From: a virus
Taxonomy: Duplodnaviria > Caudoviricetes
IMG/VR virus record: IMGVR_UViG_3300025103_000055
Location: 1 to 40,802 of that record
DNA: 40,802 nt
Direction: 5' to 3' (one strand)
In this document: positions 7,508-38,516 of the stretch, in pieces
How positions within the stretch are numbered: the stretch's first letter is position 1
How the letters are laid out: each line of letters opens with the position of its first letter
Notes under the pieces: generated by a model
Database searches by the model: none
Seen by the model: only the letters and a program-made list of their open reading frames with translations
Told to the model about the DNA's origin: nothing
Position numbers and translations under genes: made by a program

Positions 7508-8244
7508 TATCTTCCTCTGTAACTTTCTCTGTTTGAATCTGAAGCAGTGTATCCACCTCCACCTACACCTCTTGATCTTGCTGCAGATGATCTTGTAACT
7601 GAACTTCTATTTCTATCTGGTCTATCATTTCTACCTGCATCTCTTTGAATTCTGTTAGTTATATCTCTAGCGTCTCTAAATACATTTGGATCTCTTGCTA
7701 AAGCTTCTCTATCTCTTCTTCTTTTAAAAAACTCTGCTCCTGTTCTAGAGTTTCTAAAATCACTTAATGATTCTGATCCTCTTAAAGATTCTAAACCACG
7801 TCTTACTAAATTAAATGGTGTAGGAATATTTCTTAATAAATCCAGAATACCACTTAATGGATTTCTAGATTTTTCTACTTGTTCTATATAATTTTGATCT
7901 TGTTCATCATTAGTTGTTTCATCTATCATACTCATGTCACTTACACCTTGAAATCTATCTAAATTCAAACCTCTTAATGTAGTTAAATCAGGTTGATAAA
8001 AATCTTGAGGAGCATTAACAAAATTTCTTGGTTGATAAAACATTTGAGTAGGATTTCTATCTAATGGATAAAAATCTTGAGTAGGACTAAGATTATTTGG
8101 TTGGTAAAAATCTTGAGTAGGATCTTGATTTAAATATTGTTGATTTTGATACTGAAAAGCTAATGGATTTAAACTAGCTATACCACCAGGTCCTTCAAAA
8201 GGTCGTAGTAATTGTTGTAATTTTAATTCATCTAATGTAGCCAT
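7507..8244 (-). CDS. Low-complexity hypothetical protein with PTQDFYQP repeats and an Arg/Gly/Ser-rich tail
   Basis: 245-aa ORF with TAATG coupling on both sides. Confidence 0.75.
   Translation of the reverse strand: MATLDELKLQQLLRPFEGPGGIASLNPLAFQYQNQQYLNQDPTQDFYQPNNLSPTQDFYPLDRNPTQMFYQPRNFVNAPQDFYQPDLTTLRGLNLDRFQGVSDMSMIDETTNDEQDQNYIEQVEKSRNPLSGILDLLRNIPTPFNLVRRGLESLRGSESLSDFRNSRTGAEFFKRRRDREALARDPNVFRDARDITNRIQRDAGRNDRPDRNRSSVTRSSAARSRGVGGGGYTASDSNRESYRGR
7991..8122. repeat. Four imperfect in-frame tandem repeats (core GGTTGATAAAAATCTTGAGTAGGA)
   Basis: Copies start near 7991, 8030, 8066 and 8099 and encode PTQDFYQP-like units. Confidence 0.85.
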
Positions 8245-11200
8245 TATGCTAATCCTCTTTGTCTAAGACGTATTTGTTGTTCTTCAGGTGATAATAAAGC
8301 AAGTTCTGTTGGTGTCAACCCTTGAGATGTAATGTTCCCTGGAGCCTGAGGCTGTGGTTGTAGTATCTGGGCGCTAGGCATTGGTGTTTGTGGTAAAGGT
8401 AATGTTTGTACTTCTTCCAGTAAATAATCATTTAAATTTATACCTGCTTGATCTACATCTTCTAAATTAGGTGTGTATGCTAAACCACCTTGTGCAAATC
8501 TTTGGGGTTCTATATTTCTTTGATATGATCCATCTAATCTTAATCTATTCATATCTCTTCTCATTCTTAAAAGAGAAGGTAATGCTGTTTTAAATACATC
8601 ATAGGTTCCAAGATTTTTTGCTATCTCTCTAAATCTATCTCTAATATCTTCAGAAGGAAAATAAGATTCAAATCTTCCTCTTCTAAGATCATTAAAAGCA
8701 GATGTAGAAAATTGTCTATCAGAAAATTCTGTTTGTAGATTGTTTTTAGATACTCCTAAAATTTCAGCAGCATTAATATTTTTATGCATTTCTTTTTGAA
8801 CATTAAATCTTGCTTTATTTGATTCATAAAATCTTGAAATAATATCATTAGCTTTAATAGGTCCTCCTCTTAATAATCCAAATGCACCACCAGTAAATTC
8901 TCTTCTGGCATTTCTAATTCCTGTATTATATTCAGCAATTTTAAATCCCATTGATTTTAATGGATCTACGGTTATAGGTCTAAATCCTATTAATCCAGCT
9001 ATTTGATCATCTAAGTCTAATATTTTTCCTGATTTAGTTGGAGTCTGTGTAGCTGCCTGACCTATTCTTATGTATTGTCTATATGATGGAGCAAGAGCTT
9101 CCATTAAATGTCTAAACTTAATAGATACTCTATCACCTAAAGGTGTTTGATCTGTATATAAAAGTCTACCATCTCTAGTTCTACCACCTCTTCCAGGTAG
9201 TAATGGAAATAAATCTACATCTGCTGCAGCTTGAGTCCAGATAGATTCATCAATAAATGGTGCAGCCATTTCTGTAATTGCTTCATCAGCTCCTGTGATA
9301 AATCCTTTTAAAATAGTATCACCATCTTTTGTAGCATTCATAACTTCATTAGCTAAAACTCTAAATGGTCTACCTATTAAATCATATGCATTACTGTGAC
9401 TAAAATCTATGTATTTTAATTCACCTGTATTTTCATCTCTAATTGGAACTAATGTAGAATTTCTTGACCATTCAGGAACAAATTGTCTTAAAGCTTGTAT
9501 CTCATCTTCTGTAACATTGTATAAAGCTTTTGAACCTTCTACAACCATAGCCGGAACTGCATTTAAGGTAAATGCCATACCAGCAGCTCTAGTAGCACCA
9601 ATGCTATACATTGGATTATTATTTTTAACTAAACCTTTTCCTTCTATATAAACCATTGGAGATATATTACTTCCTCTAACTACTTCACCTGGACCCGGAA
9701 TATGTTTTAATTCTTTAATTGCTTGTTGGCCAATATTAACTGTTGATCTAATCATTTCAGATGGAAAAGACATAAAGTTACCAACTGGTAATAATCTTGC
9801 AGTTCTTACAACGTCTCCAACATAAGCGTAATTAGGAACAGTGTTTCTAACAATAGCTGCTGCTTCTTCTTTTAATTCTCTTGCAGTTTTATTAATACCT
9901 GCTTTTTTATAAGCATTTTCTCTTCTACTCATTTCAACAAAATAGTTTGTAATTTTCCAAAAATCATCTTCAGCTGTATACTTACCCTGTAAGTATTCAG
10001 GAACTTTTTTTAATTTAGAAAGCATTGGATTTAATACAGCATCTAGATCAGCTATCTTATCTCCAAAATTAATATCTTTCATCAAAGCTCTAAGGTCTCC
10101 TATTTGAACTTGTGAGTTTACCACACCTAATTCTAATAATTCTCTGTATGCATCTTCAAATTCTACACTTTTATATCTAGTATTTTTTAAATTACCTACA
10201 CCAGATATTTCCCAACCTCTTCTAAATGCATCTCCTAACATTTTAGGATTTCTAAAACCTTGAAATAAAATTCCATTTGCTGATGCAAATGCACCGGCAC
10301 TAATAATATTACGTAAGTGTGTAGGTATAGAAAACACTGTTTTAGCTAACTGTGATGCTGCTTTTGGAAATAATAATAAATTTCTATATAAAAAACTTGC
10401 ACCTTTTTCAGCAGCAGTTGCACCTTCTTTACCTCTAACTGCAGCGGTAAAATAACCTTCGGTTAAATTATTTGCTTGTTCTAATGCATCAGCAATGGGC
10501 TTTGTAGTAAATCTACCAACTAATGGATTTGCTATTTGACCTGCTTTAAATGTAGCTAAATCTTTTAATTTATCTTTTTTACCTATTTCTATAATTTCTA
10601 CAACACCATTAGTAGCAGCTCTTGCTTCTTCTGCTGTTTTCCAAAAACTTCCTACTCCTCCTTGAGATTGAATTAAATCATTTTCATCAATCATTTGTTT
10701 TAACATAGCACTATTTCTAGCCATACCAGATAATTGTGTTACTGCATTAAATACAGAATATCTAGGATCTTTCATTTCTCCTAAAAGTTTTCTTATTTCT
10801 ACTGCAGGTCCTTTAGTTTCATCAATTATATTTTTTATAAATTTTTCATCTTTACCAAAACCTTCTAATGTTTTTTTAATATAAGATGGATCTACTAATC
10901 CTTTACTAGATTTTCTAGTCTTAACTGCATCCTCTAAAATTTTATCTACAATATTTCTTGCTTCTTGATAGAAAGGTTTAATATCAGCGGTTCCTCTAGT
11001 TTCAGCTAACTGTCTTTGAAAAAGTTTAGTAGCTCCTTCTTTTACTTCTTCAGTAGGTTTATATCTACCAAAAATTCCTAGAAAAGGAGCATCTTCAAAT
11101 ATTTTATATGTATTTTTTACAGATGATTTTATTCTATCTTGTAAAATAGCTTTTAATTCTGGTGCATTATATTTATTAGTTGTATCAATTAAATTTTTAA

Positions 11201-12269
11201 AAGTAGATCTTGCATCATCTACTGTATTAAAAAGTTGACCTAATACCTCATCACTAACACCTTTGTCTTTTAAAGATTTTGCAAATAAATCTACTTTTTG
11301 TGGATTAACAACTTTAGTTAAATCATCACTTAATATTAAATCATTAATTTCTTTATAAAAAGTTTCTTTTTCTTTACTACTTAAAGTTCTATCTAAAACT
11401 TTTTGCATTTCTGGAAATGCTTTTTGAATAGTTCTATCTAATCTTTTTACTAATTCAGTTGCTTTATTCATATCTGCAGATCTAAATCCTTCCATAACTT
11501 TTTGAGAACCAAATAAAGCTTTTGTTAAAGGTCCTTCAGGTGTAAATGCTTCTGCAAATTTATTTAAATATCTTTCAAATCTATTATTACTATAGGCAAG
11601 TTCTTTTCCTTTTTGTGCTAAAGCTTTAGCACTTTTACCTGCAGCAGCTACTACAGGTGTAAATAATAAAGACTCACTACTAAATTTTAATCTGTTCATT
11701 AATTTTCTAGTAGCATCTTCTCTTCCTTCTAATTCATCTGTATCTAATTGAGTAGGACCTCTATCAAACAAATCACCAAAAGTTCCTATTTTCTCTACAT
11801 CTGCAACAAAAAATTCACCTGCAGCTCCACCAAGTGCTCCTACAGCAAATCTTTGTGCACCTTCTTTTTCATTTAATTTAAATGCTTTCTCTGCACCTTT
11901 AACTACTTTTTTATCTCCTGAGCTAAATGATTTACCTAATTTTTTCTTTTTAAAATAATTAGTAGCTAACTTACTTCCTAATTTAAAACCTGCAGTACCT
12001 GGAATTCCAATTGAAGTTAATGCTTCTGTTAGTTTACCTATACCTTTTTGTTCTGCTATTTCTTCAAATGGATTTAATTTATCAAAAAATATTTCAACAT
12101 CTGCTGCTGTATTGGTATCAAAACCTAAATCAATTAATTCTGCGCCTAATGAAAATACACCTTCTGGAACTTTTATAATACCTGATGCTATACCTGATAA
12201 ACCTGAAGTATACCAAGAAACTTCATTGCTCTCTTCCGCAGGGAACATTGGTTTAAATTCTTCAGCCAT
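8244..12269 (-). CDS. Large internal virion / DNA-ejection protein (putative)
   Basis: 1341 aa, helical character, last of a series of genes in the position podoviruses use for ejectosome proteins. RFAQGG motif near the C-terminus. Confidence 0.6.
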   Translation of the reverse strand: MAEEFKPMFPAEESNEVSWYTSGLSGIASGIIKVPEGVFSLGAELIDLGFDTNTAADVEIFFDKLNPFEEIAEQKGIGKLTEALTSIGIPGTAGFKLGSKLATNYFKKKKLGKSFSSGDKKVVKGAEKAFKLNEKEGAQRFAVGALGGAAGEFFVADVEKIGTFGDLFDRGPTQLDTDELEGREDATRKLMNRLKFSSESLLFTPVVAAAGKSAKALAQKGKELAYSNNRFERYLNKFAEAFTPEGPLTKALFGSQKVMEGFRSADMNKATELVKRLDRTIQKAFPEMQKVLDRTLSSKEKETFYKEINDLILSDDLTKVVNPQKVDLFAKSLKDKGVSDEVLGQLFNTVDDARSTFKNLIDTTNKYNAPELKAILQDRIKSSVKNTYKIFEDAPFLGIFGRYKPTEEVKEGATKLFQRQLAETRGTADIKPFYQEARNIVDKILEDAVKTRKSSKGLVDPSYIKKTLEGFGKDEKFIKNIIDETKGPAVEIRKLLGEMKDPRYSVFNAVTQLSGMARNSAMLKQMIDENDLIQSQGGVGSFWKTAEEARAATNGVVEIIEIGKKDKLKDLATFKAGQIANPLVGRFTTKPIADALEQANNLTEGYFTAAVRGKEGATAAEKGASFLYRNLLLFPKAASQLAKTVFSIPTHLRNIISAGAFASANGILFQGFRNPKMLGDAFRRGWEISGVGNLKNTRYKSVEFEDAYRELLELGVVNSQVQIGDLRALMKDINFGDKIADLDAVLNPMLSKLKKVPEYLQGKYTAEDDFWKITNYFVEMSRRENAYKKAGINKTARELKEEAAAIVRNTVPNYAYVGDVVRTARLLPVGNFMSFPSEMIRSTVNIGQQAIKELKHIPGPGEVVRGSNISPMVYIEGKGLVKNNNPMYSIGATRAAGMAFTLNAVPAMVVEGSKALYNVTEDEIQALRQFVPEWSRNSTLVPIRDENTGELKYIDFSHSNAYDLIGRPFRVLANEVMNATKDGDTILKGFITGADEAITEMAAPFIDESIWTQAAADVDLFPLLPGRGGRTRDGRLLYTDQTPLGDRVSIKFRHLMEALAPSYRQYIRIGQAATQTPTKSGKILDLDDQIAGLIGFRPITVDPLKSMGFKIAEYNTGIRNARREFTGGAFGLLRGGPIKANDIISRFYESNKARFNVQKEMHKNINAAEILGVSKNNLQTEFSDRQFSTSAFNDLRRGRFESYFPSEDIRDRFREIAKNLGTYDVFKTALPSLLRMRRDMNRLRLDGSYQRNIEPQRFAQGGLAYTPNLEDVDQAGINLNDYLLEEVQTLPLPQTPMPSAQILQPQPQAPGNITSQGLTPTELALLSPEEQQIRLRQRGLA

Positions 12270-12274
12270 TTAAC

Positions 12275-13399
12275 CTACAATCCTATATCGAATGCGTCTT
12301 TTTGATTTTCTCTTAAATCTTTTATTTTTTTCTTTACTACTGGAGTAATTACATCTGGTTTTGTTTCTTGTCCAAATAAACCTACAGATGGTTCTTCTAT
12401 TACTTTAGTATCAGTTCCTGTTCCTTCAACTCCCCCTAGGTTAATAGATTCTATAGTAGCATATTCTATAGGCTGTCCTATTTTTCCATCTTCATATATA
12501 ATTTTTTTATAATTACCTGCATATGGATCATAAACATATGTTCCATTTAATTCTTCAATAATTTTTCTATTAGCTTTTGCTTCTGCAGGATCATTAATAT
12601 TAAAACTTAATACACCATTTCCTTTTACTCTACCTTGTCCTACTTTATTTCTTAAATCATCTGCATCATTAAATTTAAAATCTGTTGCTCTTTTTGCTAC
12701 AGTAGGTTGACCATCAAACTCTTTCATATCTAATTCTAGTTGAACTAGATATTCTGGAGATCTTTTTACTTCTTGATTTTCTTGTTTAATTCTCTCAATA
12801 TCTTTTCTACCTTCAATTTCTCTATCTAAACGCTTCATTAATTCTTTTTGTTCTTCTCTTGATCTAAATAATAAAGCTTCTTGTTCTGCTTTACTTAAAT
12901 CTCTATCTAACACTGCTTTTGCTTTTGCCATATCTGATTTAAATTTTTGATCTGCTTCTGTAGCAATCATTTGATTTCTTTGAGCTATAGATGCACCTGT
13001 TGCGTCAACTCTAATACCTCTTTGAAATTTATCTTCATCTGCTTTTTCTTTAAGTAAAGCTTGAACCGGTTTTTCTGTTGCTGCAATTAAATTAGCAATA
13101 GTTCCACCACCTCTATCTTCTACAGCTGCTGATGGTCCATATGATAATAAGAAACTTGTTAATGGATCAAATCCACCTCTATCTCCAGCTGCTTCTAATA
13201 AAGCTTCTGTGCTTTCTGCAGTTAAATCTTTTAGACTAGGTATAGTTCTTCCTTGGTATGGAGTGTTAAATGAATATTGATCTGTTCCACCTACAAAAGG
13301 ATCTTCAGCATGATTAGTTCTATCTACAATACCGGTCATAATGCCATCTCCGACATTACCGCCTTTTCTAAACATTGGTCTTCTAAATATTTTGCTCAT
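12275..13399 (-). CDS. Putative internal virion / ejection protein
   Basis: 374 aa, begins MSKIFRRPMFRKGG, central coiled coil. Called from gene position. Confidence 0.55.
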   Translation of the reverse strand: MSKIFRRPMFRKGGNVGDGIMTGIVDRTNHAEDPFVGGTDQYSFNTPYQGRTIPSLKDLTAESTEALLEAAGDRGGFDPLTSFLLSYGPSAAVEDRGGGTIANLIAATEKPVQALLKEKADEDKFQRGIRVDATGASIAQRNQMIATEADQKFKSDMAKAKAVLDRDLSKAEQEALLFRSREEQKELMKRLDREIEGRKDIERIKQENQEVKRSPEYLVQLELDMKEFDGQPTVAKRATDFKFNDADDLRNKVGQGRVKGNGVLSFNINDPAEAKANRKIIEELNGTYVYDPYAGNYKKIIYEDGKIGQPIEYATIESINLGGVEGTGTDTKVIEEPSVGLFGQETKPDVITPVVKKKIKDLRENQKDAFDIGL

Positions 13400-13400: not shown

Positions 13401-14225
13401 TTAAACTGTTGGTGGTCTAAACGCTCTATACAAACCTGCTAGTGTAGCACCGGCACTTATACCTGTTTGAACATTACTTGGTCCTGATGTTGGTTGAACT
13501 GTTTGAGAAGTTCCTCCAGGGTATCCAGAAATTAAACTAGCAATACCAGAACCATATTGTTGAGCTGCTGTTAATGGTTGATTTAATTGTGCTTGTAATA
13601 ATTGTTGTTGAGCGCTTAACTGTTGCTGTTGTTGAGCTTGGTTAATGCCACCTAATGTAGATAAAGCTCCAACATCTTGACCTAAGAAACCTTGTTGTGC
13701 TTGACCTAAATTTAATTGATTAGCAATATTTTGTTGAGCTAATTGTTGAGCTTGACCAAAACCTTGTTGTAATAATTGTGCTTGTAATGCTGCTCTGTTT
13801 CTATCTGAAGCTTGTTGATACTCTGCTCTTTGTACACCTTCACGACCACCACCAAATGCACCAGCATTAATAGCTTGTGCTGCTAATGCGGGTATTCCTT
13901 TTTGTGCTTGTACATCAAACTGTTGTAAAGTTGTATCAATTATATCTTGTTGATATGGAGACATAAAAGCTTGATAGCCAGTAGGTCCACTTGAAGCTTG
14001 AGCTGCTTGAAGAAAAGGTTGATAACCACCTATACCTGCAAGTGCTGTTGTTTGAGCTTGAGCTTGTAAAGGATCTTGACCAGCAACAAACTGTTGACCC
14101 ATAACTTGAGATAAGTCAGCGCCTTTAAATTGACCAACTGCTTTTTGTAAATCTGTTAAATAAGTTTTACCGGCAGCTTCTATAAACTCCGGTGGTTGAT
14201 TTATTTGTGTAATCGTTTCAGCCAT
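13401..14225 (-). CDS. Gln/Ala/Gly-rich putative DNA-pilot / ejection protein
   Basis: YMSPY-like FMSPYQQDIID and AGAFGGGR motifs, poly-Q stretches and a hydrophobic C-terminal segment, like podovirus DNA-transfer proteins. Confidence 0.6.
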   Translation of the reverse strand: MAETITQINQPPEFIEAAGKTYLTDLQKAVGQFKGADLSQVMGQQFVAGQDPLQAQAQTTALAGIGGYQPFLQAAQASSGPTGYQAFMSPYQQDIIDTTLQQFDVQAQKGIPALAAQAINAGAFGGGREGVQRAEYQQASDRNRAALQAQLLQQGFGQAQQLAQQNIANQLNLGQAQQGFLGQDVGALSTLGGINQAQQQQQLSAQQQLLQAQLNQPLTAAQQYGSGIASLISGYPGGTSQTVQPTSGPSNVQTGISAGATLAGLYRAFRPPTV

Positions 14226-15175
14226 TATACTCTTCCACCTTTTTCTAATTTTTTCATCATATCGTACATACGTTGTGCACCTTTATTAACGTTTCCGTCA
14301 CCCATTCCTCTTACAGCATCAGCTGTAAATACGAATTCATTGTTTGCTAACATCGCAGGGATGTCATCTGCCTTTTCTTTTACACCAACTGGAGGAATAA
14401 ATCCACCTGTTTCTCTAAGATCTAATTCTGTAACCCCTGCAGGGTTTTGATTTAATGGTAGATTCATGATGCCGGCTGCTTCTATAGCGTTTTGTTCTGG
14501 TTTATTTCCAAAAGCATAACCTATTCTACCACCATTAGCTGCCATTGTTTTCTGTTCAGCTACTTTCTGTCTACGTTTATTTTCTAAAAACTCTTTATAA
14601 AGTTGTTCAGCATTTTGTTTCTTATTAAATTCTTCTCTACCTTTTAGATATTCTTCAAACTCTGTTCCACCTGCATAACCTATTCTACCACCATTAGCAT
14701 ATCCACCTTGACCTGCTGAATACTCAGCAACATCTGATTCTACTAATGCAGGAATCTCATCTTCTGAATAGTTTAAATTTCTATATCCTTTTTCTAAATA
14801 ACTTCTTAGAGCATTAACATCTCTAGTTGCTGCAACTGCTTCTTCATCACCACTTTCTACTGCTGAAGCTAGTCCACCTAATAAACTACCTCCTGCAAAC
14901 ATAGCTGCAGTTTTACCTAAACTTGCATCACCTTTAAAAAAATCTTTTACTCCTGTAAAACTAGGTAAACCTTTACTACCTAAAAAACCCATACCTCTTT
15001 GTAATAAAGTTTGTCCTCCAAAAGGAACAAAAGAAGCAATAGCTGCTAAACCTAAAGGAGACTTAGCTGCTTTAGCTACACCTTTAACAGCGCCTTTAAT
15101 TCCTTTAGTAACTGATTTAACTAGGCTTCCTAAGCCGTATAATTGTCTTGGTTGTAATCCTCGTGATATTGCCAT
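14225..15175 (-). CDS. Putative internal virion protein with repeated ANGGRIGYA motifs and a C-terminal DDIPAML..NEFVFTA domain
   Basis: 316-aa ORF. Motifs read directly from the translation. Confidence 0.7.
   Translation of the reverse strand: MAISRGLQPRQLYGLGSLVKSVTKGIKGAVKGVAKAAKSPLGLAAIASFVPFGGQTLLQRGMGFLGSKGLPSFTGVKDFFKGDASLGKTAAMFAGGSLLGGLASAVESGDEEAVAATRDVNALRSYLEKGYRNLNYSEDEIPALVESDVAEYSAGQGGYANGGRIGYAGGTEFEEYLKGREEFNKKQNAEQLYKEFLENKRRQKVAEQKTMAANGGRIGYAFGNKPEQNAIEAAGIMNLPLNQNPAGVTELDLRETGGFIPPVGVKEKADDIPAMLANNEFVFTADAVRGMGDGNVNKGAQRMYDMMKKLEKGGRV
14514..14698. repeat. Perfect 26-bp direct repeat GCATAACCTATTCTACCACCATTAGC (two copies, 159 nt apart)
   Basis: Copies at 14514-14539 and 14673-14698, both encoding ANGGRIGYA. 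Confidence 0.92.
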
Positions 15176-15230: not shown

Positions 15231-16151
15231 TTATTTGATTTTTTCGCTATCGTCAACAGATTTTGCTTGTTCTAATAGATCAAAGAATCGACCACAGTAT
15301 TGATGATCTCCAACGTGAGTTATGTAATCCATAGCATAGATATGTATTTCTCCTCCCATATCTGTCCATCTTTGACAAAAACCAAAATCTTCACCAAAAT
15401 ATCTCTTAGTTTCTACATCATGTAATGTATCAAATAAATTGTAAAAGTTTTCTTTTTTAACTTCTTTACCATTAATAACAGTAGGTTGATATATCTCTAG
15501 TTCTGGATGATGTTTAATCATATCTTCAATAACTTTTCTTTTAATTAGCATACATCCTGTAGGAGCATGAGTTACTTTAATAACTCCATTTTCCATAGTC
15601 ATTTCATTTTCTTTAATCTTAATAGGAAATACATGACCTGCTTTTAATACATCATCAGGAGTTTTAACCATATTGGTTTCTTTTATCTTTCTCCACATTT
15701 TATCTGTATCAAATGTTTTCATTGGATATGGACAAGAGATAACATCTTTATCTGCACCTATCATTTTGTATATAGTTTTAGAATTAAAATCTATATCTGA
15801 GTCTATAAACAATAAATAATCATAATGGTCTTTATGATTTAAAAATTCTGCTACACATAAGTTTCTACCTTGTGTAACCAATGATGATTTAAGTAATGTA
15901 AAACTAACTAGTATACCTTGTTGCATACAGTCTAATTGAAACTTTAATACAGCTTGAGTGTAATGCATAGACACTTCACTATGACAAGGAGTACAAACCA
16001 TTATCTTTGCTTTTGGTTTATCTAAAATATCTCCTATGTTAATAGTTCTAACGTTTGAGTTTACCTGTTCTATTTTTTCTGTTTGGTAAGTATCTTCATT
16101 AGCAGTTGTTTTCTTTTTTTCAGAAAACCATATGGGTTCATTATTTTGCAT
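15231..16151 (-). CDS. GT-A fold glycosyltransferase (GT2-like)
   Basis: IMVCTPC, SLVTQGRN, YLLFIDSDI (DxD), TGCMLIKR, GEDFGFC, H.G. Confidence 0.8.
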   Translation of the reverse strand: MQNNEPIWFSEKKKTTANEDTYQTEKIEQVNSNVRTINIGDILDKPKAKIMVCTPCHSEVSMHYTQAVLKFQLDCMQQGILVSFTLLKSSLVTQGRNLCVAEFLNHKDHYDYLLFIDSDIDFNSKTIYKMIGADKDVISCPYPMKTFDTDKMWRKIKETNMVKTPDDVLKAGHVFPIKIKENEMTMENGVIKVTHAPTGCMLIKRKVIEDMIKHHPELEIYQPTVINGKEVKKENFYNLFDTLHDVETKRYFGEDFGFCQRWTDMGGEIHIYAMDYITHVGDHQYCGRFFDLLEQAKSVDDSEKIK

Positions 16152-17079
16152 TTAGTGCTCCTCTCAAAAATCTTGTCCATGCTTGTCCTTTTGCTCCCCA
16201 ATCATAAAATCTATTTACATAATTTTGTTGCATCTTTAAATGATCCTGGATGCCTGAATCATGAAGCATATCTGCCGAAGCTTCTATAGCTGCAGCAAAC
16301 TTTCTAGCTAAACTTTTATAATCATTTGAGTAAGGTACATACATTGGAAACTCTGCACCTGTTTCGTATAGCGCACCAAAGTTGGTCGTAATACAGTATA
16401 GACCTGCTGACATAGATTCTAATAATGAGATACAAGATGTTTCTTCCCAAATACTTGGGTATACAAACATTCTATAATCTTTTAAATTTTCTTTAATATA
16501 TTCATTTGGCTTGTAGCCAATATAATTTACATTAGGTAGTTGTCTTGCTTGTTCATATAAAGCTTTATATGATTCATCATTAGCTTCAGCAAAATCTTTT
16601 CCATATACTTCACAAGAAGAATAAACATCTAAACTAATTAATGGATTCTTAACTAATTGCATTGCACCTAACAATACAGATAAACCTCTCCAAGGTGTAC
16701 AGTGATGTATTATTTTTATAGGATCACCTTTTTTATATTGTGTTATAACCGGTTGTACTTCTTCAATACCATTTTTAATGACTGCACATTTCTCTCTAGG
16801 TAAATCAAATCTTTTTGTAAACTGTTCAAAGTTCCAATTAGAATTAAATATATACCAATCATATTTATCATGATTTGATTTATCACTGAACCAGGGTTGT
16901 AAATTAGGTTGATCCCAAGAATTTTTTTGCCAAAGAATATTTAGCTTAGTTGGATGTAAAGGTACTTTACCTGGAACTGATGTACAAATTTCTACTTGAT
17001 TAAGTAAGCTAGGTTCTACATGCTTTCTTAAATATTCAAATTGTAATTCTGTTCCGCCTCTAGGGTTTTGGTTTGTCAT
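16141..17079 (-). CDS. GT-B fold glycosyltransferase (GT4 / group 1)
   Basis: GGTE, IKNGI, PWRGL, FVYPSIWEETSCISLLESMSAG (Ex7E), GALYET. Confidence 0.88.
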   Translation of the reverse strand: MTNQNPRGGTELQFEYLRKHVEPSLLNQVEICTSVPGKVPLHPTKLNILWQKNSWDQPNLQPWFSDKSNHDKYDWYIFNSNWNFEQFTKRFDLPREKCAVIKNGIEEVQPVITQYKKGDPIKIIHHCTPWRGLSVLLGAMQLVKNPLISLDVYSSCEVYGKDFAEANDESYKALYEQARQLPNVNYIGYKPNEYIKENLKDYRMFVYPSIWEETSCISLLESMSAGLYCITTNFGALYETGAEFPMYVPYSNDYKSLARKFAAAIEASADMLHDSGIQDHLKMQQNYVNRFYDWGAKGQAWTRFLRGALNAK

Positions 17080-20312: not shown

Positions 20313-20858
20313 ATGGACCATTTAGAAGCAATTGTTGAGATAAAAAATATAGTTTCTCCTGAATTTATAGAAAAAATTATTCCATTAATTGATAAAAAAT
20401 CTATAAAAAATTTATTTATACAAGGTGGTTTAGACAAAGAAGTAAGAAATGTAAAAGGGTATTATTTAAATTTTGAAACACCTACTAATTTATTTTATTG
20501 GAATTTTATAAAAAAAGAAATTGAAAGATTATATACTTTTTATAAGATGAAATTTCCACAAATGGCTAGTAATAAAATAAATCAAATTGATTTATTAAAA
20601 TATAGTGTTGGAGGTAAATATGAAACTCATACAGACCATTTTTCAACATCAATAAGACATTTAAGTATTATTATTAATTTAAATGATAATTATGAGGGTG
20701 GAGATTTAGTATTTACAGATCAAAACAACAAAGAAATTAAAAGGTTAAAACTTGGTAAAGGATCTATTGTTTTTTTTCCAAGTAATTTTATGTATCCTCA
20801 TGGTATTCAACCTATTACGAAAGGAACAAGGTATAGTATCGTTTCATGGCTGCAATAA
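20313..20858 (+). CDS. 2OG-Fe(II) oxygenase (prolyl-4-hydroxylase-like)
   Basis: KYSVGGKYETHTD (HxD), LNDNYEGGDL, FPSNFMYPHG (distal His), GTRYSIVSW. Confidence 0.9.
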   Translation: MDHLEAIVEIKNIVSPEFIEKIIPLIDKKSIKNLFIQGGLDKEVRNVKGYYLNFETPTNLFYWNFIKKEIERLYTFYKMKFPQMASNKINQIDLLKYSVGGKYETHTDHFSTSIRHLSIIINLNDNYEGGDLVFTDQNNKEIKRLKLGKGSIVFFPSNFMYPHGIQPITKGTRYSIVSWLQ

Positions 20859-21418
20859 AATTTAAATTAATAAAAAATTTTTTTACACAAAAAGAACTAA
20901 ATGTTCTTCAAAAATATTGTTATAACAAAGTAGATCAAAGCACAGATTATAAAATTGATAATCAATCATTTTCCCCTGGGTGGTATAATGATCCATTAAT
21001 GAATGCTATTTTAGATACAAAGTTACCTTTAGTTGAAAAAAAATCTAAACTAAAATTATTTCCAACATACGCATATTGGAGATATTATGTATTTGGTGCC
21101 ACTCTAGCTAAACACACTGATAGACCTTCATGTGAAATATCTATTACAGCCTGTGTTAAAAAATATGATAATTGGCCTATGATTGTTGAAGGAAATAAAT
21201 TTGAATTAGAAGAAGGGGATGGTGTTCTTTACGCAGGTTGTGAACAAGAACATGGTCGTCCTAATGTTTATGAAGGTGAAGGAATGGCACAAGTATTTTT
21301 TCATTATGTAAACAAGAAGGGTCCTTTTACACATCACGCTTACGATAAATATTTATCAGAAACAGGAAAAATAGTTTCCGAAGAAGATGAAATAATTTTA
21401 AATAAAAAATATAAATAA
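20846..21418 (+). CDS. 2OG-Fe(II) oxygenase-like protein
   Basis: PTYAYWR, HTDRPSCEIS (HxD), GDGVLYAGC..EHGR, QVFFHYV. Confidence 0.82.
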   Translation: MAAIKFKLIKNFFTQKELNVLQKYCYNKVDQSTDYKIDNQSFSPGWYNDPLMNAILDTKLPLVEKKSKLKLFPTYAYWRYYVFGATLAKHTDRPSCEISITACVKKYDNWPMIVEGNKFELEEGDGVLYAGCEQEHGRPNVYEGEGMAQVFFHYVNKKGPFTHHAYDKYLSETGKIVSEEDEIILNKKYK

Positions 21419-21420
21419 TT

Positions 21421-22011
21421 ATGGAAAAAACAGTTAATATAAATAATTTTATAGCTACGTATGATAACTATATTACTAAAGAAGAATGTAATAAAGCTAT
21501 CCAACTTTTTGAGAATCAATATAAATTTAATAATACTATAAATAGAATAGACTCCGAAAAATCTTCAATTTTACATAAACAAGATCAGCAATACTTCGCA
21601 TCACCAAATAATATAGAATTTTGGTGGGAAAGCTTAAAATCTATGATGTTTAATTTTGAAATAGCATGGAATCATTATTTAAAAAATACAGGAGCAGGTG
21701 ATATGTATACAGATCCTTTGCTTTTTACTAATTTAAAAATACAAAAAACTTTACCTACAGAAGGATATCATATTTGGCATGTTGAGCATGTTAAAGGGTT
21801 TGAAAATGAACCTAGAGCTTTTGTTTTTTCTATATATTTAAATGATGTAGAGGACGGCGGAGAAACAGAGTTCTTACATCAATCAGTTAGAGTAAAACCT
21901 AAAGCAGGTAGAATAGTTATTTGGCCTGCTAGTTTTCCATATGTCCATAGAGGAAACCCACCGTTATCTGGTGAAAAATATATTTTAACTTCTTGGATGA
22001 TGTTTAGATAA
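21421..22011 (+). CDS. 2OG-Fe(II) oxygenase
   Basis: GYHIWHVE (HxE), YLNDVEDGGETEF, WPASFPYVHRGNPP, KYILTSW. Confidence 0.9.
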   Translation: MEKTVNINNFIATYDNYITKEECNKAIQLFENQYKFNNTINRIDSEKSSILHKQDQQYFASPNNIEFWWESLKSMMFNFEIAWNHYLKNTGAGDMYTDPLLFTNLKIQKTLPTEGYHIWHVEHVKGFENEPRAFVFSIYLNDVEDGGETEFLHQSVRVKPKAGRIVIWPASFPYVHRGNPPLSGEKYILTSWMMFR

Positions 22012-30388: not shown

Positions 30389-30853
30389 TTAACTCTTCTT
30401 CGAGCCACCGAAAGTTACACGTGTCTGTCGATCAATATTGATCGGCATACTTGGGTGCTGTTCCTTCATAAGATCGTTATCCACTGCTTCAACGTTGTCT
30501 TGAGCTTGTTTTCTATAATACTCAGCACGTTGTTGCGCAATCTCTTCCGGTACCCTTGCTAGCACAAGGCCACCAACTCCGATCACTCCCTTATATTTGC
30601 CATCATCTACATGAGGATAATCTGAGTCTGGATATTCATCAGCTCTTACTAATTCATATCCTGATCTAATTCTTCCAGAAACATTCTTAGTGTCTTGGAA
30701 TCCCATAGATTCAACTCTTATCCATCTGTGTATAAATCCTGTTGGCGCAGGGGGTGCATCTAAACTTGATGGTGGAGTCCAAACTTTTTTCTTAGCTTCT
30801 TTTTCTCTAGTTTGACTCGCACGCGAGGTTCTTTTATCGTTATTATTTTCCAT
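30389..30853 (-). CDS. Conserved head-module hypothetical protein
   Basis: WTPPSSLDAPPAP.G..HRWIR, GYELVRADEYP, GVGGLVLARVP. Confidence 0.75.
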   Translation of the reverse strand: MENNNDKRTSRASQTREKEAKKKVWTPPSSLDAPPAPTGFIHRWIRVESMGFQDTKNVSGRIRSGYELVRADEYPDSDYPHVDDGKYKGVIGVGGLVLARVPEEIAQQRAEYYRKQAQDNVEAVDNDLMKEQHPSMPINIDRQTRVTFGGSKKS

Positions 30854-31895: not shown

Positions 31896-32357
31896 TTAAT
31901 ATTGATGAAGTATATCTTCGGGTTTATCGATGGTTGCTAAAACTTCATCATCATTTAGCAATCTTACTTCCCCACCGTCTATCTGTATTCTTGATCCAGC
32001 GTATCTTGCAAAGATAACCCAGTCACCTTTTTTACACCAAGCACCTTCAGGAAATTTTTCTTTATCATAACAATGTGGTCCCATCTCAAGAACCAAACCA
32101 CAAGTAGAACCTACTTGTTGTCTCTCAAGTGTATCTTGTCCTAGTATTAAACCACCTTTAGTTTTTTCAGGCATTTTAAATGGTAAAACTAATAGTCTCC
32201 ATCCAGTAGGTGCAGGTAATTTACTTGATTCTTTTTTCTTTAGACGTTCGTAACCGTCTACTTCTTTTTTATGTTCGTCATCGTATTTATCTAATAAAGC
32301 GGATTTAGTTTTTGGGACTTCCGAAGTCGACGACGTTTTCTGGTCTTTCAGCATCAT
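31896..32357 (-). CDS. groES: Co-chaperonin GroES
   Basis: PTGWRLLV, EKTKGGLIL mobile loop, GLVLEMGP, GDWVIFARYAGSRI, RLLNDDEVLA. Confidence 0.9.
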   Translation of the reverse strand: MMLKDQKTSSTSEVPKTKSALLDKYDDEHKKEVDGYERLKKKESSKLPAPTGWRLLVLPFKMPEKTKGGLILGQDTLERQQVGSTCGLVLEMGPHCYDKEKFPEGAWCKKGDWVIFARYAGSRIQIDGGEVRLLNDDEVLATIDKPEDILHQY

Positions 32358-32693: not shown

Positions 32694-32855
32694 CTAAACA
32701 CCAACTTTCTTCATAGCTTTTTTATGACTTTTTGAAAATGACATTCCTTTTTTCATGTCTTTTTTCATACTTGTCATATGCTTTGAAGAATGATGCTTAC
32801 TGTGTTTTTTTAAAGTTTCTTTTTGTCTTTTCGTTAGTTGTTTTTCCTTTAACAT
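32694..32855 (-). CDS. 53-aa Lys/His/Met-rich protein
   Basis: Not in the ORF track. Manual translation: MLKEKQLTKRQKETLKKHSKHHSSKHMTSMKKDMKKGMSFSKSHKKAMKKVGV. AAGGAG upstream. Confidence 0.7.
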   Translation of the reverse strand: MLKEKQLTKRQKETLKKHSKHHSSKHMTSMKKDMKKGMSFSKSHKKAMKKVGV

Positions 32856-33307
32856 TTCCATCTCCTTCTTGCTTGTCTTATTCTAGAATTAGGATCATTT
32901 CTAGTTTCAGCAGAAGATCGTTTAAGTTGTCCGAGTGATCTTGCACAATATGACTTTCTACGTTTAGCTGCTTTTGATCCTTTTTTAACTTTCCCTGTCA
33001 CTGCAGTTTTTAATTTTGATCCAGGATTTGCTGCTCTATAAGCTCTTACACCTTTAGCAGTCATTCCAGCACCTGATTTTGTAGGTCTGTAATTTGCGTT
33101 TTTACCTGTAGTAGTTTTTCTAATTGTACCACCTTTTGCTTTTTCAATTCTACCACCAGATGCTTTAAACTTAGTTCTTGGTGTTGTTCTTAAATTTTTC
33201 TTTTCTTGTTTTTCTTCTTGATAATCTCTAATTTCTTGTTGAGTTAAATTACCTAAATATTTACCATCATCGTAAGCTGGAATTGTATTTTTATTATATC
33301 TACTCAT
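32849..33307 (-). CDS. Basic protein (DUF6321-like C-terminal half)
   Basis: GMTAKGVRAYR..NPGSKLK...RRKSYCARS...DPNSRIRQARRRWKC, preceded by KASGGRIEKAKGG. The family name is from memory. Confidence 0.7.
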   Translation of the reverse strand: MSRYNKNTIPAYDDGKYLGNLTQQEIRDYQEEKQEKKNLRTTPRTKFKASGGRIEKAKGGTIRKTTTGKNANYRPTKSGAGMTAKGVRAYRAANPGSKLKTAVTGKVKKGSKAAKRRKSYCARSLGQLKRSSAETRNDPNSRIRQARRRWKC

Positions 33308-33462
33308 TAGATTTTTTGCATGTTTGGATTGTTAGATAATATATTTTTTTCTGCTCTTGGTCTAGCAACAGAGTCTCTGCTTCTTTTTCTAAGTTGAGCA
33401 ATAGCAGATTCTTTTAATGCTTTTTCTTTTTTTAATCTTTGTAAATCTTTTTCTAAGTTCAT
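33307..33462 (-). CDS. 51-aa basic helical protein
   Basis: Not in the ORF track. Manual translation: MNLEKDLQRLKKEKALKESAIAQLRKRSRDSVARPRAEKNILSNNPNMQKI. TAATG coupling at both ends. Confidence 0.7.
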   Translation of the reverse strand: MNLEKDLQRLKKEKALKESAIAQLRKRSRDSVARPRAEKNILSNNPNMQKI

Positions 33463-33716
33463 TATGCAAATGTTTTTACGTTAGTTGGTTTACCACCAGG
33501 ATTACCGGCTGCTCGTTTTCGTTTGACAGCACTCGCCTTTTGCCCTTTTGACATCCGTGTGGCTTTTGCAAGTGGTACGCACTTCGGATATTTTCGCTTC
33601 GAACCCTTGCTTCGTCCACATGGTTGATACTTCCCATTCTTTTTTGGAGCTCCTATGTCTACCCATTTCTCCGATACCCATTTTCTTAATCCACCTTCTG
33701 CAAAATTCCTACGCAC
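33462..33716 (-). CDS. Small basic protein
   Basis: MRRNFAEGGLRKW..EKWVDIG...CGRS...YPKCVP. Confidence 0.75.
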   Translation of the reverse strand: MRRNFAEGGLRKWVSEKWVDIGAPKKNGKYQPCGRSKGSKRKYPKCVPLAKATRMSKGQKASAVKRKRAAGNPGGKPTNVKTFA

Positions 33717-33909
33717 AACTTAATCTCTTTTTTCTAGCCATGCCAGCCATCAAACCACCATTACCGGCTTTTTTACGACTACCTTTTTTGCCACCAGGTG
33801 TAATTTTACCTGAACAAACTCCGGACGCATACATGTTCGCGTACGCCGAAGGGTAAACTTTGAATTTACGTTTCGCTGCTGCTTTTCCTTTTGCACAAAG
33901 TTTAGCCAT
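33709..33909 (-). CDS. Small basic protein
   Basis: MAKLCAKGKAAAKRKFKVYPSAYANMYAS.VC.GK. Confidence 0.75.
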   Translation of the reverse strand: MAKLCAKGKAAAKRKFKVYPSAYANMYASGVCSGKITPGGKKGSRKKAGNGGLMAGMARKKRLSCA

Positions 33910-34055
33910 TATGCGATACCCATTGCTTTTTTCATCATTGACTTAGACTTTGTTTTTTTACCTTTAGACATTAAAATTTTTTTCTGTAATTCTTTTGGTA
34001 AAGTTTTTTGTGCCTTCGTTAAAGTTGGGCCACCTTTATTATAATAGTTTCTCAT
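33909..34055 (-). CDS. 48-aa Lys-rich protein
   Basis: Not in the ORF track. Manual translation: MRNYYNKGGPTLTKAQKTLPKELQKKILMSKGKKTKSKSMMKKAMGIA. GGAGG upstream and TAATG coupling at both ends. Confidence 0.72.
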   Translation of the reverse strand: MRNYYNKGGPTLTKAQKTLPKELQKKILMSKGKKTKSKSMMKKAMGIA

Positions 34056-34438: not shown

Positions 34439-34439
34439 G

Positions 34440-34622: not shown

Positions 34623-34644
34623 AATTTTTCTCCTTAGTTAATTT

Positions 34645-34673: not shown

Positions 34674-34675
34674 TA

Positions 34676-37174
34676 TTATTCGTTTCCACCACGAATAATT
34701 TCAACATTTGGCATCATGTCTTTAGCATTTGGAAGAGTTTTACTCAAAACAGTTTTTTGAATTGATGTATCAGCTCTTAAATTTGCTAAATCTTCATTTT
34801 GTTCAAGTTTTTCTTCTTGATTTTGTTGATTCATCATTGCTCTCATCTTATCAAGATTAATTCTTTCTTGATCTTGCTCTTTTCTACGTTGATTTTCCAT
34901 TGCTCTAAGGTCTAACTCTCTTGATCTTAGTTTTGCAATAGGATCATTGTCGAATTGTGAAGTAATTTCTTTTTCTTCCTTCATAAATTCTTCCATCATC
35001 TCTGCAATCAACTGAGCTTTTCTTGCTTCAATCTTTTGTGTAAGCATTTGTACCTGTTGTTGTAGACCAGGATTCTGTTGAGCCATTTGTTGCATCTGTT
35101 GTAGTTGAACTAATTCATCTCTGAACTCTAATTCAATTTGTTCTTGAGACATTAGACTAATATGTTCAAAAATATTCTTCTCTAATGAAGCCATAATCAT
35201 TGGATTGTTTCTAGCAATGTTAGTTGCCATGAAATTTAAGTGAGCTGTAATGTGAGCTCTGTGATCTTGACCTGGAAACGCTTGAAATTGTTTTCCAGCT
35301 AACGCATCAATGTGTTCTAACGCCGGATCTTTTGGCATTGGTTGCATTGGTTTAATTAAAACTTGATCAATATTTTTTACACCTAAAGCTTCATACATAT
35401 TTCTATATGCTTGATACAGATTGTGCATTTGTGGATTAGATGATGCCAGTTGCAACTCTGTTTGCGCTAGTGAAATACGCTGAGTCTGTGAAAAGATGTT
35501 GGGATCGGCAACTGGCAATATATCTACTCTATCATCAAAGTCAGTTTGTTTAACAACTCTTTGACCCCCAACTACATCGTACGGATATTCCGGTGGTAGA
35601 TATAACTTGAATACTCTTGCTAGTAATTTAAATTCTTGTTTAAGAGCAGAGTAAATTCTTTTGTGAATTGCAGACATAGTTCTACTTCCTCTTTCAAGAA
35701 GAGCTACTGTAGTTCCAACTGCTGCTTGTTGATTGCCATCACCAACTTGTAAATCTGCTATTGATGCAAATCTTTGTCCTGCTTGAACAACGATACCCAT
35801 CAAACTTAATAATGTTTGACTTGGTTCTTTAAATGGAAGCATCATAAATGAATCTCTTAAATTACCACCGGGTGCATCTACATCTCTAAACTCACCTGGT
35901 TGAATTGATTGTGCATCATCTCTAATTCTAATACCACGCATTTTAAATCCTGCAGGTAAATTAGATAAAGTTCCTGCATCTAATAATTGTCTTAATGCAG
36001 AAGTTGCAGTTCTTGATAATCCACCAATCATGTGAATCAAACCAAAACCATAAAAACCTAGTCCTGGTAAAAATTTAAAGTGTACAAAATAATTAATTTT
36101 ATTTTTCATTGCATCACCTATTTCATAGTTTCTTCTAATAGATAAAACTTCACGTGAATTTTCTTCAAGTGTTACAATGTATGGGACCTTAATTCCTGAT
36201 GGCTCACCAGTCTCTTGATTTACATCTTCAAAACCTTCTAAGTCTAAATCAATATGACATTCTAATAATGTATAAACATCGTCGTTTGTAGTTCTTGTTA
36301 CTCCTTCAAGTTCTCTTTCCTTTTTTTCAATTTCAGTTTCTTTATCTCCAGGTTTTCCAATATCTATATCTTTATAGAATCCACCAACCTGTTGTTTTCT
36401 TAAATCGTTTTCAGAAATTTTTACACGATGGATGATTGCCTCTGCATCGTCTAATGAGGTAGCGGTGTAGGGTACAATCAAATCATCTGCAGGAACAAAT
36501 TTAGAAACTGCTCTTTGTTCCATATCGTCATAGTAGACTTTTTTAAAAGCAGAACCTGCTAATGGTAAGTTAAATAATAACTGATCAAAATCTGGTTCGT
36601 ACTCTTTCATTTTTTCCATTAACTCGTAGTTCATGAAATCTTTTACTCTAGCTGCTTGCTGAGTTTTTTCTTGCGATGGCATTCCAATTGTTTGAGTTCT
36701 AACTGGTCCATCTGCTGGAAGTAATTCTTTGTAAGCTAATGCTTGAAATTGTGTAACAGCTTCTGCTAGTACTGGGTGTGTTGCACCACTAGCCCCTGCA
36801 AAAGGTTCTGTTCTATTATTATATTTAAAACCTAAAAGGTCTAAACCTTGAGTATAAGTTTGTGCCCAATCTTTTCTTGAAGCTGTGTAGTCTTGATACT
36901 TAGAAGATAAATCTGAGGCTAGTCTTCCAAGTACATCGTCTGGTAAAAATTCTGCTAAGTTTGCATAATGCTCATCACCACCTTCAGGTGACGCTGCTGC
37001 AGGATCTAAATTAATATCTACTGATCCATCTTCGTTTTCTGAAACTTCAATATCATCAGGTGATTCTTGAACCGCTTGAACTTCTTCTACAATTTCTTCT
37101 TGAATCTCTTCTTCACCAGGAACATTAACTGTTTTTCGAACTTCGTTTGGAAGTGCTTTGTCTATATCTGCCAT
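34676..37174 (-). CDS. Portal protein (P22-like, long C-terminal coiled coil)
   Basis: SRKDW, HPVLAEAVTQFQA, LPLAGSAFKKVY, FLPGLGFYGFGL, LRQLLDAGTLSNLP, VGTTVALLE. 832 aa, downstream of terL. Confidence 0.88.
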   Translation of the reverse strand: MADIDKALPNEVRKTVNVPGEEEIQEEIVEEVQAVQESPDDIEVSENEDGSVDINLDPAAASPEGGDEHYANLAEFLPDDVLGRLASDLSSKYQDYTASRKDWAQTYTQGLDLLGFKYNNRTEPFAGASGATHPVLAEAVTQFQALAYKELLPADGPVRTQTIGMPSQEKTQQAARVKDFMNYELMEKMKEYEPDFDQLLFNLPLAGSAFKKVYYDDMEQRAVSKFVPADDLIVPYTATSLDDAEAIIHRVKISENDLRKQQVGGFYKDIDIGKPGDKETEIEKKERELEGVTRTTNDDVYTLLECHIDLDLEGFEDVNQETGEPSGIKVPYIVTLEENSREVLSIRRNYEIGDAMKNKINYFVHFKFLPGLGFYGFGLIHMIGGLSRTATSALRQLLDAGTLSNLPAGFKMRGIRIRDDAQSIQPGEFRDVDAPGGNLRDSFMMLPFKEPSQTLLSLMGIVVQAGQRFASIADLQVGDGNQQAAVGTTVALLERGSRTMSAIHKRIYSALKQEFKLLARVFKLYLPPEYPYDVVGGQRVVKQTDFDDRVDILPVADPNIFSQTQRISLAQTELQLASSNPQMHNLYQAYRNMYEALGVKNIDQVLIKPMQPMPKDPALEHIDALAGKQFQAFPGQDHRAHITAHLNFMATNIARNNPMIMASLEKNIFEHISLMSQEQIELEFRDELVQLQQMQQMAQQNPGLQQQVQMLTQKIEARKAQLIAEMMEEFMKEEKEITSQFDNDPIAKLRSRELDLRAMENQRRKEQDQERINLDKMRAMMNQQNQEEKLEQNEDLANLRADTSIQKTVLSKTLPNAKDMMPNVEIIRGGNE

Positions 37175-37286
37175 TATATTTTTTCTCCGTAAGTTTTATC
37201 TGTTTAACACCATTATAATTAATATTCAACCCCTGAGGCATGGGCCCTGATTCCGGAGGAATTGTTCTAGTAAGCCTTTTAGTCAT
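37125..37286 (-). CDS. 53-aa hypothetical protein (PP.SGPMPQGL motif)
   Basis: Not in the ORF track. Manual translation: MTKRLTRTIPPESGPMPQGLNINYNGVKQIKLTEKKYNGRYRQSTSKRSSKNS. Overlaps the upstream stop and the portal start. Confidence 0.55.
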   Translation of the reverse strand: MTKRLTRTIPPESGPMPQGLNINYNGVKQIKLTEKKYNGRYRQSTSKRSSKNS

Positions 37287-37932
37287 TACCAAATTTTTTG
37301 TATAATTCTTGTCCTGGTCCTAAAGCAAATTCTTTATATGACATTCTATCATCATATCCACCTTTACCATCGAAGAAGTATTCTCTCATCCATTTTTCAG
37401 ATTTAGGCATTGTACCACTACCCTGGTTTTTTCTTGTTTCCTCCATAGCCTGTTTTACTGCTTGACCAAATTCATAACCATCGTCCATAAGTTCTTTTAC
37501 TCTTTTACTTAATTCTGCATCAGGATCCAGGGAGCCTATACCAAATTGTGCTCGGCCTCCATCAGCAAACTTTTTAAAATATTGTTCTGCAAATTTATCT
37601 ATATCCATGCCAGTTGCTTCAAGGCCTCCGGCTTTAATATAAGCTTCTGTAACCATTGCATTGTATTCTGTATCTCCACCTTCTAACATATTGGTTCTAT
37701 AATTTTCTATTTTCTCAGTTACCATTTCTCCTGTTTCACCAAATAATGGTTTAACAATTTTTAAATACTCATCTATTTCTAGTTCACCATTTTCATATGC
37801 TTTTCTTGAAAATATACCGACCATGTCAGCATAAGTTTTTGGAGACAAAGTATTAACTGCTGCTTCTGTGTCAAGCATGTCTAACATCTTTGTAAAATTT
37901 TTAGGTTTTTTAGGAGGGGCTTGGTCAGGCAC
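37279..37932 (-). CDS. Modular hypothetical protein with MLEGG / FADGG motifs
   Basis: 217-aa ORF starting at GTG with AGGAG upstream. Confidence 0.7.
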   Translation of the reverse strand: MPDQAPPKKPKNFTKMLDMLDTEAAVNTLSPKTYADMVGIFSRKAYENGELEIDEYLKIVKPLFGETGEMVTEKIENYRTNMLEGGDTEYNAMVTEAYIKAGGLEATGMDIDKFAEQYFKKFADGGRAQFGIGSLDPDAELSKRVKELMDDGYEFGQAVKQAMEETRKNQGSGTMPKSEKWMREYFFDGKGGYDDRMSYKEFALGPGQELYKKFGND

Positions 37933-38516
37933 TACAGGACTCCTGCAATACCGCCCATAGCTTTTTTTTCTATTTTTTTATCAGGACCAGGACCAATTGC
38001 TTGGTTTTTTTTATAGAAATCTTTTTTTAAAATAAACTTAGGTCCATCTCTTGTTACAACTTCTACATAATCATCCATATTAAACATGGTACTACCTTCA
38101 CCTGTAGTTGTATCTCTTTGCATTGATTTAGATGGTTTAACAATTTCTTCTGTTCCACTACCATAAGCCATTCTCATAGATCCACCACCCATAGCCATAG
38201 CTCTATTCTCTTCCATCATTTTCTTTTTAGACACATAATTATCTAAATATTGATCTAAGGAAATACCTCTAACTGCAGGGTCGTCTTTTGATTTTAAATC
38301 GTTGTATTCGTTAATGACACCCATTAACTCAAGTTGAAATTCTTCTTCAGCAGTTTCTGATGCCATTTTAATTGATGGAGCTTTTCTTAAAGATCTAATT
38401 CCACCTTCATCTTCATACTCTTCAGGATCGTTAAGGTCTTCTAAAGTTTCACCCATCTCGATCATTCTAAGCTGATCTTTTAATCTTTGGTCTAGTTCTC
38501 TATCGTCAATTGCCAT
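37932..38516 (-). CDS. Modular hypothetical protein with MAMGG / KAMGG motifs
   Basis: 194-aa ORF directly after terL. Confidence 0.72.
   Translation of the reverse strand: MAIDDRELDQRLKDQLRMIEMGETLEDLNDPEEYEDEGGIRSLRKAPSIKMASETAEEEFQLELMGVINEYNDLKSKDDPAVRGISLDQYLDNYVSKKKMMEENRAMAMGGGSMRMAYGSGTEEIVKPSKSMQRDTTTGEGSTMFNMDDYVEVVTRDGPKFILKKDFYKKNQAIGPGPDKKIEKKAMGGIAGVL

Follow-up and report, generated by a model that had tools for sequence, protein, structure and literature searches.

The late proteins encoded by a 40,802-nucleotide stretch of viral DNA (IMG/VR record IMGVR_UViG_3300025103_000055, positions 1 to 40,802; the whole stretch is hereafter called the window) share a short peptide motif, xAxGG, which is kept in seven unrelated protein families and also borders a domain of the type found in siphophage tape-measure proteins. 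We tentatively read the motif as a recognition site that would be cut before its alanine during maturation and that would also serve as a loading handle. The record, about 65% complete, comes from an HTVC027P-like pelagiphage: gene order in the window is that of Pelagibacter phage HTVC027P, and the two portal proteins are 79% identical. The late genes lie on the minus strand in the order terL, 194 residues, 217 residues, portal, small basic genes, GroES, scaffold, capsid, adaptors, a nozzle-like protein of 654 residues, and then the proteins of 316, 274, 374 and 1341 residues. A preliminary description of this DNA had quoted instances of the motif in eight or nine carriers, and every one was found in its place on the minus strand. 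The carriers and the elements within them are the following, in window coordinates.

14225..15175, minus strand: 316-residue predicted first ejection/cargo protein, with N-terminal Gly-rich hydrophobic segments, two free motif doublets and a C-terminal tape-measure-type domain
14687..14701, minus strand: YANGG (continued by RIGYAGG), free motif doublet of the 316-residue protein
14528..14542, minus strand: AANGG (continued by RIGYAFG), free motif doublet of the 316-residue protein
14228..14428, minus strand: domain of about 65 residues (residues 250-316), GG...D-I-P-A-M-L-x-x-x-E-F-V...GG, with motif copies on both flanks
14402..14416, minus strand: RETGG, motif-like, at the N-edge of this domain, aligned to FATGG of gpH
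14234..14248, minus strand: LEKGG (followed by RV), motif-like, at the C-edge of this domain; its codons differ between orthologues
12275..13399, minus strand: 374-residue predicted internal protein, with N-terminal FRKGG at 13358-13372
8244..12269, minus strand: 1341-residue predicted large ejection protein, with poorly conserved FAQGG at 8484-8498
37279..37932, minus strand: 217-residue acidic protein between terL and portal, with FADGG at 37555-37569 and a decayed MLEGG at 37675-37689
37932..38516, minus strand: 194-residue acidic protein after terL, with MAMGG at 38184-38198 and a C-terminal copy, KAMGGIAGVL, at 37950-37964
33909..34055, minus strand: 48-residue basic protein (K+R 29%), with N-terminal YNKGG at 34029-34043
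33709..33909, minus strand: 66-residue basic protein, with AGNGG at 33754-33768, mostly AAxGG in orthologues
33462..33716, minus strand: 84-residue basic protein (weak DUF5872 match), with N-terminal FAEGG at 33690-33704
32849..33307, minus strand: 152-residue basic protein (DUF6321), with KASGG at 33152-33166 and KAKGG at 33128-33142

A pattern for the motif, framed post hoc, finds 11 hits in the 59 proteins of the window against 2.6 in shuffled sequences, and none of 2000 shuffles reached 11. Nine of the 11 fall in previously listed carriers and two are false. Chance matches had been foreseen in the preliminary description and do occur, as in YSVGG of a 2OG-Fe oxygenase and FRQGG of TerL. 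The latter was rejected as a tag: it ends the nuclease domain, and relatives read RQGS, RAGN or RKGW. Another candidate, TKGG of GroES, ranked sixth in the held-out ranking of window proteins and was dropped as a lone low score; this phage-encoded co-chaperonin of the head module (31896-32357) is itself conserved throughout the relatives looked at, and crAss001 has an annotated one (gp15).

For a wider comparison, 160 IMG/VR loci and 5 annotated genomes were sampled. A matrix was trained leaving one family out at a time, from seeds picked by pattern inside the previously listed carrier families and with CRP-901 and RW rows excluded; a hit was a score of at least 6, and the shuffled expectation was below one per family. 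The held-out matrix finds the motif in five non-homologous late families, those of 316 (68/76 members), 374 (21/54), 217 (29/40), 194 (17/31) and 66 residues (5/16), and gives no hit in 40 other families, including portal (0/75), TerL (0/49) and the 274-residue ejection protein (0/68). By the same matrix the motif is next to absent in the families of 84 (1/16), 48 (0/15), 152 (0/26) and 1341 residues (2/33). Capsid (0/12) and scaffold (0/15) lack the motif, as had been noted.

Orthologues were also read by eye, over the first 22 rows per family. The motif is seen in 18 of 22 printed orthologues of the 374-residue protein and in 19 of 22 rows of the 217-residue family, where the three misses are 5'-truncated and where orthologues have YAxGGR at the place of the decayed MLEGG. 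The C-terminal copy of the 194-residue protein is present in all 22 printed orthologues. Among the small basic proteins the motif stands in 15/15 (48 residues), 15/16 (66 residues) and 14/17 (84 residues), in the last family at either end depending on the orthologue. It is found in 7 of 21 rows of the 1341-residue family, mostly at other positions, and in 2 of 22 of the 152-residue family, most of whose members are shorter and lack that part. Judged from these alignments, the eight or nine carriers hold for this genome, while across relatives seven families (316, 374, 217, 194, 84, 66 and 48 residues) conserve the motif. Among 67 complete orthologues of the 316-residue protein, the number of free copies ranges from 0 to 4. 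At locus L020 (136-1111), its orthologue appears as two open reading frames of 152 and 180 residues, the second beginning slightly ahead of a motif copy; the gene may truly be split, or the assembly may be wrong there.

The consensus reads basic, basic, [YFMAK]-A-x-G-G-R-[IVM]-[GN]-[YF]-x-x-G. Doublets of the form R-hydrophobic-x-aromatic-x-G have a length of 7 in 129 cases and of 8 in 25. The residue preceding the alanine is of 12 types over 182 contexts, and the conserved positions lie on the alanine side, which is counted in favour of a cut at that place. GGA is the first glycine codon in 12 of 120 strict contexts, compared with 650 of 3066 other GG pairs and 33 of 67 C-terminal ones. Because of this codon use, an origin as a by-product of Shine-Dalgarno sites was ruled out, and the motif is a protein-level element.

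Two proteins of the late region that lack the motif are needed for what follows.

13401..14225, minus strand: 274-residue DNA ejection protein-like gene (PHROG 4287, a weak match, E-value 0.0013)
34676..37174, minus strand: portal protein (PHROG 1216), a candidate docking site

The common recognition tag put forward in the preliminary description is partly supported: a shared element on probable internal cargo is favoured by its late non-shell specificity, its mobility between N- and C-termini, its changing copy number and its absence from capsid, scaffold and portal. Cargo can evidently do without it, because the 274-residue protein and most 1341-residue orthologues lack it. By gene position and analogy, the carriers would be located in the virion; a literature search returned no virion proteomics for this phage group in the sources available. 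The slot between terL and portal (37279-38516; loci L081-L162) holds one or two proteins of about 150 to 1300 residues among close relatives, of which 14 were scanned and had no Pfam match, and is probably a hypervariable cargo locus. Among 45 unassigned proteins of related loci, 18 further clusters match a loose pattern, some by chance; a 449-residue gene directly after the capsid gene of MW202545 (L333:29302-30651) has five motif copies. Two further small basic genes of the cluster near the portal, at 32694-32861 and 33307-33462 (K+R 33% and 27%), are without the motif.

The preliminary description had listed the tag in late proteins of this phage. It missed that the motif is not confined to the phage: it is the border of the tape-measure-type domain and is present in lambda gpH, T5 pb2 and C1 of crAss001. 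Residues 254-314 of the 316-residue protein match PHROG 23013, a tape measure family (E-value 0.0035). Comparison by hhalign of the domain with gpH, using profiles built without lambda and with gpH 733-782 as the lambda domain, gave a probability of 86 (E-value 4.9e-6), and a wider profile gave 95.6 (1.2e-8). Other profile matches to lambda were circular, a lambda-identical row being in the alignment, and were not counted; the matches to JBD30 gp46 (1017-1087) and to two copies in gp16 of PDB entry 8ZDO were not circular. By these profiles, the domain and the C-terminal region of siphophage tape-measure proteins, represented by gpH, are homologous; in gpH, FATGG and YATGG stand on either side of the domain core. 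Relatives of the domain number 4702 at 50% clustering, and the version in DSL-LC04 matches 1258 records from phages; of the 60 that were listed, the majority are annotated as tape measure. In bacterial-genome loci, where the core was located by pattern in 60 of 80, [AS]xGG lies upstream of it in 41/60 and downstream in 37/60. The 316-residue protein does not have the traits of a tape measure proper, a long protein that sets tail length in a tube-tailed phage: it is 316 residues long, and its neighbours are a DNA ejection protein-like gene and SU10-type portal and adaptors. Unlike in gpH, the domain here ends a predicted ejection protein, and other proteins carry the peptide of its flanks as free copies.

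In DSL-LC04 (L163:43137-45416) and in P0318, P0369 and P0386, a further segment led by the motif lies towards the N-terminus of the counterpart of the 316-residue protein; it has a D-T-M-L-A-H-I core and looks domain-like by eye, but profiles gave no link. In MW202545, the protein at L333:12075-13994 contains the domain twice, together with a Cys-rich insert. Five annotated relatives (HTVC027P, HTVC023P, DSL-LC04, RW and MW202545) have both motif and domain, and CRP-901 and QDWS535 have neither; coverage of MinM2, Pag-Yong1 and MW202675 was partial and took in none or few of their ejection genes. In non-core proteins near the portal, motifs number 143 against 18.7 in shuffled sequences in pelagiphage-like loci and 170 against 24.0 in DSL-LC04-like loci, and 29 against 28.5 in CRP-901-like loci. 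The ejection loci of the last group have the domain in 0/15 and 3 motifs against 11.9 shuffled. MW202675 has motifs that separate its GNAT, peptidase M15 and ART-PolyVal domains, a placement to be expected of injected polyvalent cargo (PMC5512222).

Two proteins of other phages bear on the position of a possible cut. T5 pb2, which yields pb2* and pb2C, is reported to be cut after R1127 (PMC10038345); residues 1127-1131 are R-A-E-G-G, and the reported cut is directly before the motif alanine. T5 pb2 is a siphophage tail protein with one site; the present phage is of the short-tailed type and has many sites, on predicted head cargo proteins that are not related to one another. In lambda, gpH is also cut near the homologous domain, which is about 60 residues long, and the released piece, gpHC, is given as about 14 kDa (PMC12617516). 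The second match is in crAss001 C1 (gp45; PF25725), in which seven motifs separate the modules; cuts at all of them would give pieces of 21.3, 6.0, 7.4, 4.4, 6.0, 15.1, 28.9 and 1.8 kDa. Density bound to the portal was assigned to residues 425-552, and another resolved stretch, 214-245, is located in the tail at a distance of about 420 Å (PMC10172136). The portal-bound piece is resolved from A425 onwards, and A425 is the motif alanine, in the same register as in T5; 214-245 lies between two motifs. Among C1 homologues, the motif is found at the N-edge of the portal-bound domain in 61/71 and, with a looser pattern, at the C-edge in 70/71; in two (L170 and L187), whole modules are lost between motifs. 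C1 resembles the 316-residue protein in its N-terminal Gly-rich hydrophobic segment, its AxGG-bordered modules, including short basic ones, and its gene position, which follows the nozzle gene and precedes further cargo genes (PMC10172136). It differs in that its modules form one polyprotein, while the basic modules of the pelagiphage are separate tagged genes near the portal, and the domains have no profile link. A loose first look with the PF25725 profile gave no match to the pelagiphage domain at E<=10, and an atlas lead linking the domain to C1 reached 0.76 only; as to a common fold, searches with an AlphaFold model of residues 205-316 were uninformative (best Z 3.0). We also matched matrix-assisted laser desorption/ionization peak lists of 13 crAss001 gel bands (supplement 8 of PMC6235969) to 22 proteins. 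Portal (10 of 30 peaks in band 5), gp22, gp25 and gp26 matched well, while gp45 (90.8 kDa) has no peak in bands 5-8 and two in band 11 (0.6 expected), which is weakly consistent with cutting of gp45.

We propose, tentatively and at somewhat less than even odds, that the motif is recognised in virion assembly and cut just before its alanine. Cargo would in this way be divided into small modules fit for ejection, and a copy at the end of a protein would serve as a loading handle that is later removed. The likeliest reader would be the tape-measure-type domain of the 316-residue protein or a factor travelling with it. A cut before the alanine is favoured because internal copies stand at module borders and because T5 and crAss001 provide two independent register matches; a handle is favoured because other copies lie a few residues from protein ends. 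That a cut site may double as a loading handle is suggested by the capsid targeting sequence of T4, said to have been described by Mullaney and Black in 1996, which reportedly directs loading and permits processing of unrelated internal proteins through a short common peptide. The T4 sequence is said to be strictly N-terminal and read with the prohead protease gp21; the present motif is N-terminal in the 374-, 84- and 48-residue proteins and otherwise internal or C-terminal, is unrelated in sequence, and no such protease is seen here.

Several results weigh against cleavage. PHROG and Pfam scans of the late genes named no protease gene in this partial record, in agreement with the preliminary description, which had seen no conventional prohead protease. 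We considered as a hidden protease the 154-residue gene between the scaffold and capsid genes (30389-30853), which has many invariant residues over 30 aligned relatives. It matches no known family or fold and was set aside: it falls in unnamed atlas clusters only, and its model (predicted local distance difference test score, pLDDT, of 71) is closest to acetyltransferase-like folds at a best Z of 4.0, with no protease listed. It is unusual for a protease to accept a variable residue ahead of its cut, and only tiny peptides would be freed from copies that lie at residue 5-10 or 9 from the end. The T5 site is disputed, earlier work having placed it at V1148 +/-1, with R1127 being a trypsin site (PMC11937520), and hhalign gave no link between the pelagiphage domain and pb2C (probability 0.4). 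A cut at the gpH motif would release 12.5 kDa, neither a match to the reported size nor a clear miss, and is counted here on the negative side. The authors of the crAss001 structure read C1 as continuous (PMC10172136). With missed cuts and oxidation allowed, gp45 has 2 of 30 matches in band 5, and gp46, which has no motif, is likewise in no band. Comparison of the pelagiphage domain with that of C1 gave probabilities of 1.5, 1.0 and 0.24, and the co-occurrence of motif and domain amounts to a single evolutionary comparison between clades.

An uncut docking tag is the next most likely reading, not far behind the cut site. The peptide would bind the portal wing or the domain of the 316-residue protein and load unrelated passengers, namely the small basic DNA-binding proteins and the variable acidic proteins, into the procapsid. 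This would suit the copies at the extreme ends of the 48-84-residue proteins, which switch ends among orthologues, the range of free copies in the 316-residue family, the doublet lengths of 7 or 8, the portal-bound, motif-led piece of C1 (PMC10172136) and the lack of a protease. It leaves the T5 register match unexplained, and tape-measure proteins carry the motif although they are assembled in the tail and need no head-loading signal; the cargo without a motif also speaks against it. We consider it unlikely that the peptide is a structural strand, the first and last of the tape-measure-type domain, with free copies joining the domain or one another so that cargo is bundled into an ordered ejection queue or a hook at the channel. 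The [AS]xGG flanks in bacterial-genome loci and the joint occurrence by clade agree with it, as does JBD30, where the authors predicted a hairpin-and-helix "hook" at 1022-1066 (PMC11445458), inside the region matched. However, the AlphaFold model of residues 205-316 (mean pLDDT 62) places the motifs at low confidence and outside strands; as far as the available text of these reports goes, the tail structures of lambda (PMC12617516) and JBD30 (PMC11445458) do not include the region in what was modelled. Least probable by far is a linker spread by recombination: a short repeat would favour the shuffling of modules and would persist only because it makes a flexible hinge, and nothing would read it. 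Gain and loss of modules do take place exactly between copies, but synonymous codons vary freely, copies at protein termini join nothing, and the alanine and the residues after GG are conserved over phages of very different hosts.

Two further systems are comparable with the proposed recognition and cut. P22 gp7 is an ejection protein cut by host OpdA to a mature N-terminus K-G-G-K-G (PMC8402733). It is one protein, in another register, whose removed piece is largely dispensable (PMC8402733), and the gp7-like 274-residue protein here has no motif. Polyvalent proteins are late proteins that join several conflict domains, often with a zincin peptidase, and for which packaging, processing and injection are predicted (PMC5512222); one tagged relative carries ART-PolyVal and another InPase. 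Processing of polyvalent proteins is ascribed to built-in zincin metallopeptidases, none of which was found here, and the available text of that report names no junction motif. Pfam scans of the window carriers gave no effector or peptidase domain; among 20 relatives scanned, two tagged MW202675 proteins have them.

Cleavage of pb2 and gpH, the structure of C1 and the T4 targeting sequence are each known separately. A literature search gave no description of the motif or of a link between tape measures and head cargo, which is a weak negative, and the available text of an ejection-protein review names no such signal. What tape measures and podophage cargo have in common is passage through the tail ahead of the DNA. 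A bolder and rather improbable extension is that siphophage tape measures, crassvirus C1 and pelagiphages share one ancient cargo grammar, made of the five-residue tag and the reading domain of about 65 residues, which may itself drive the cut. If so, any protein acquiring the tag could be loaded, chopped and injected by the phage; the signal for tape-measure cleavage would be named, C1 would be re-read as separate processed pieces, and the tag would be portable for protein delivery. The questions touched are old ones: by what means a short-tailed phage selects its injected proteins and sets their order, and which agent cuts gpH and pb2. From the motif, neo-termini can be predicted to the residue in four phages that are in culture (HTVC027P, crAss001, lambda and T5). 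It also marks out a variable set of tagged proteins of 48 to 1300 residues, encoded from terL to the head genes, as cargo that this very abundant group of marine phages probably injects.

Two other regions of the window were recorded. Immediately upstream of the ejection genes, 15231-17079 holds two conserved genes, one of them for a glycosyltransferase and the other in PHROG 1574. Within the minus-strand tail region, three genes lie on the plus strand (20313-22011), and the counterpart block in HTVC027P includes an annotated 2OG-Fe(II) oxygenase.

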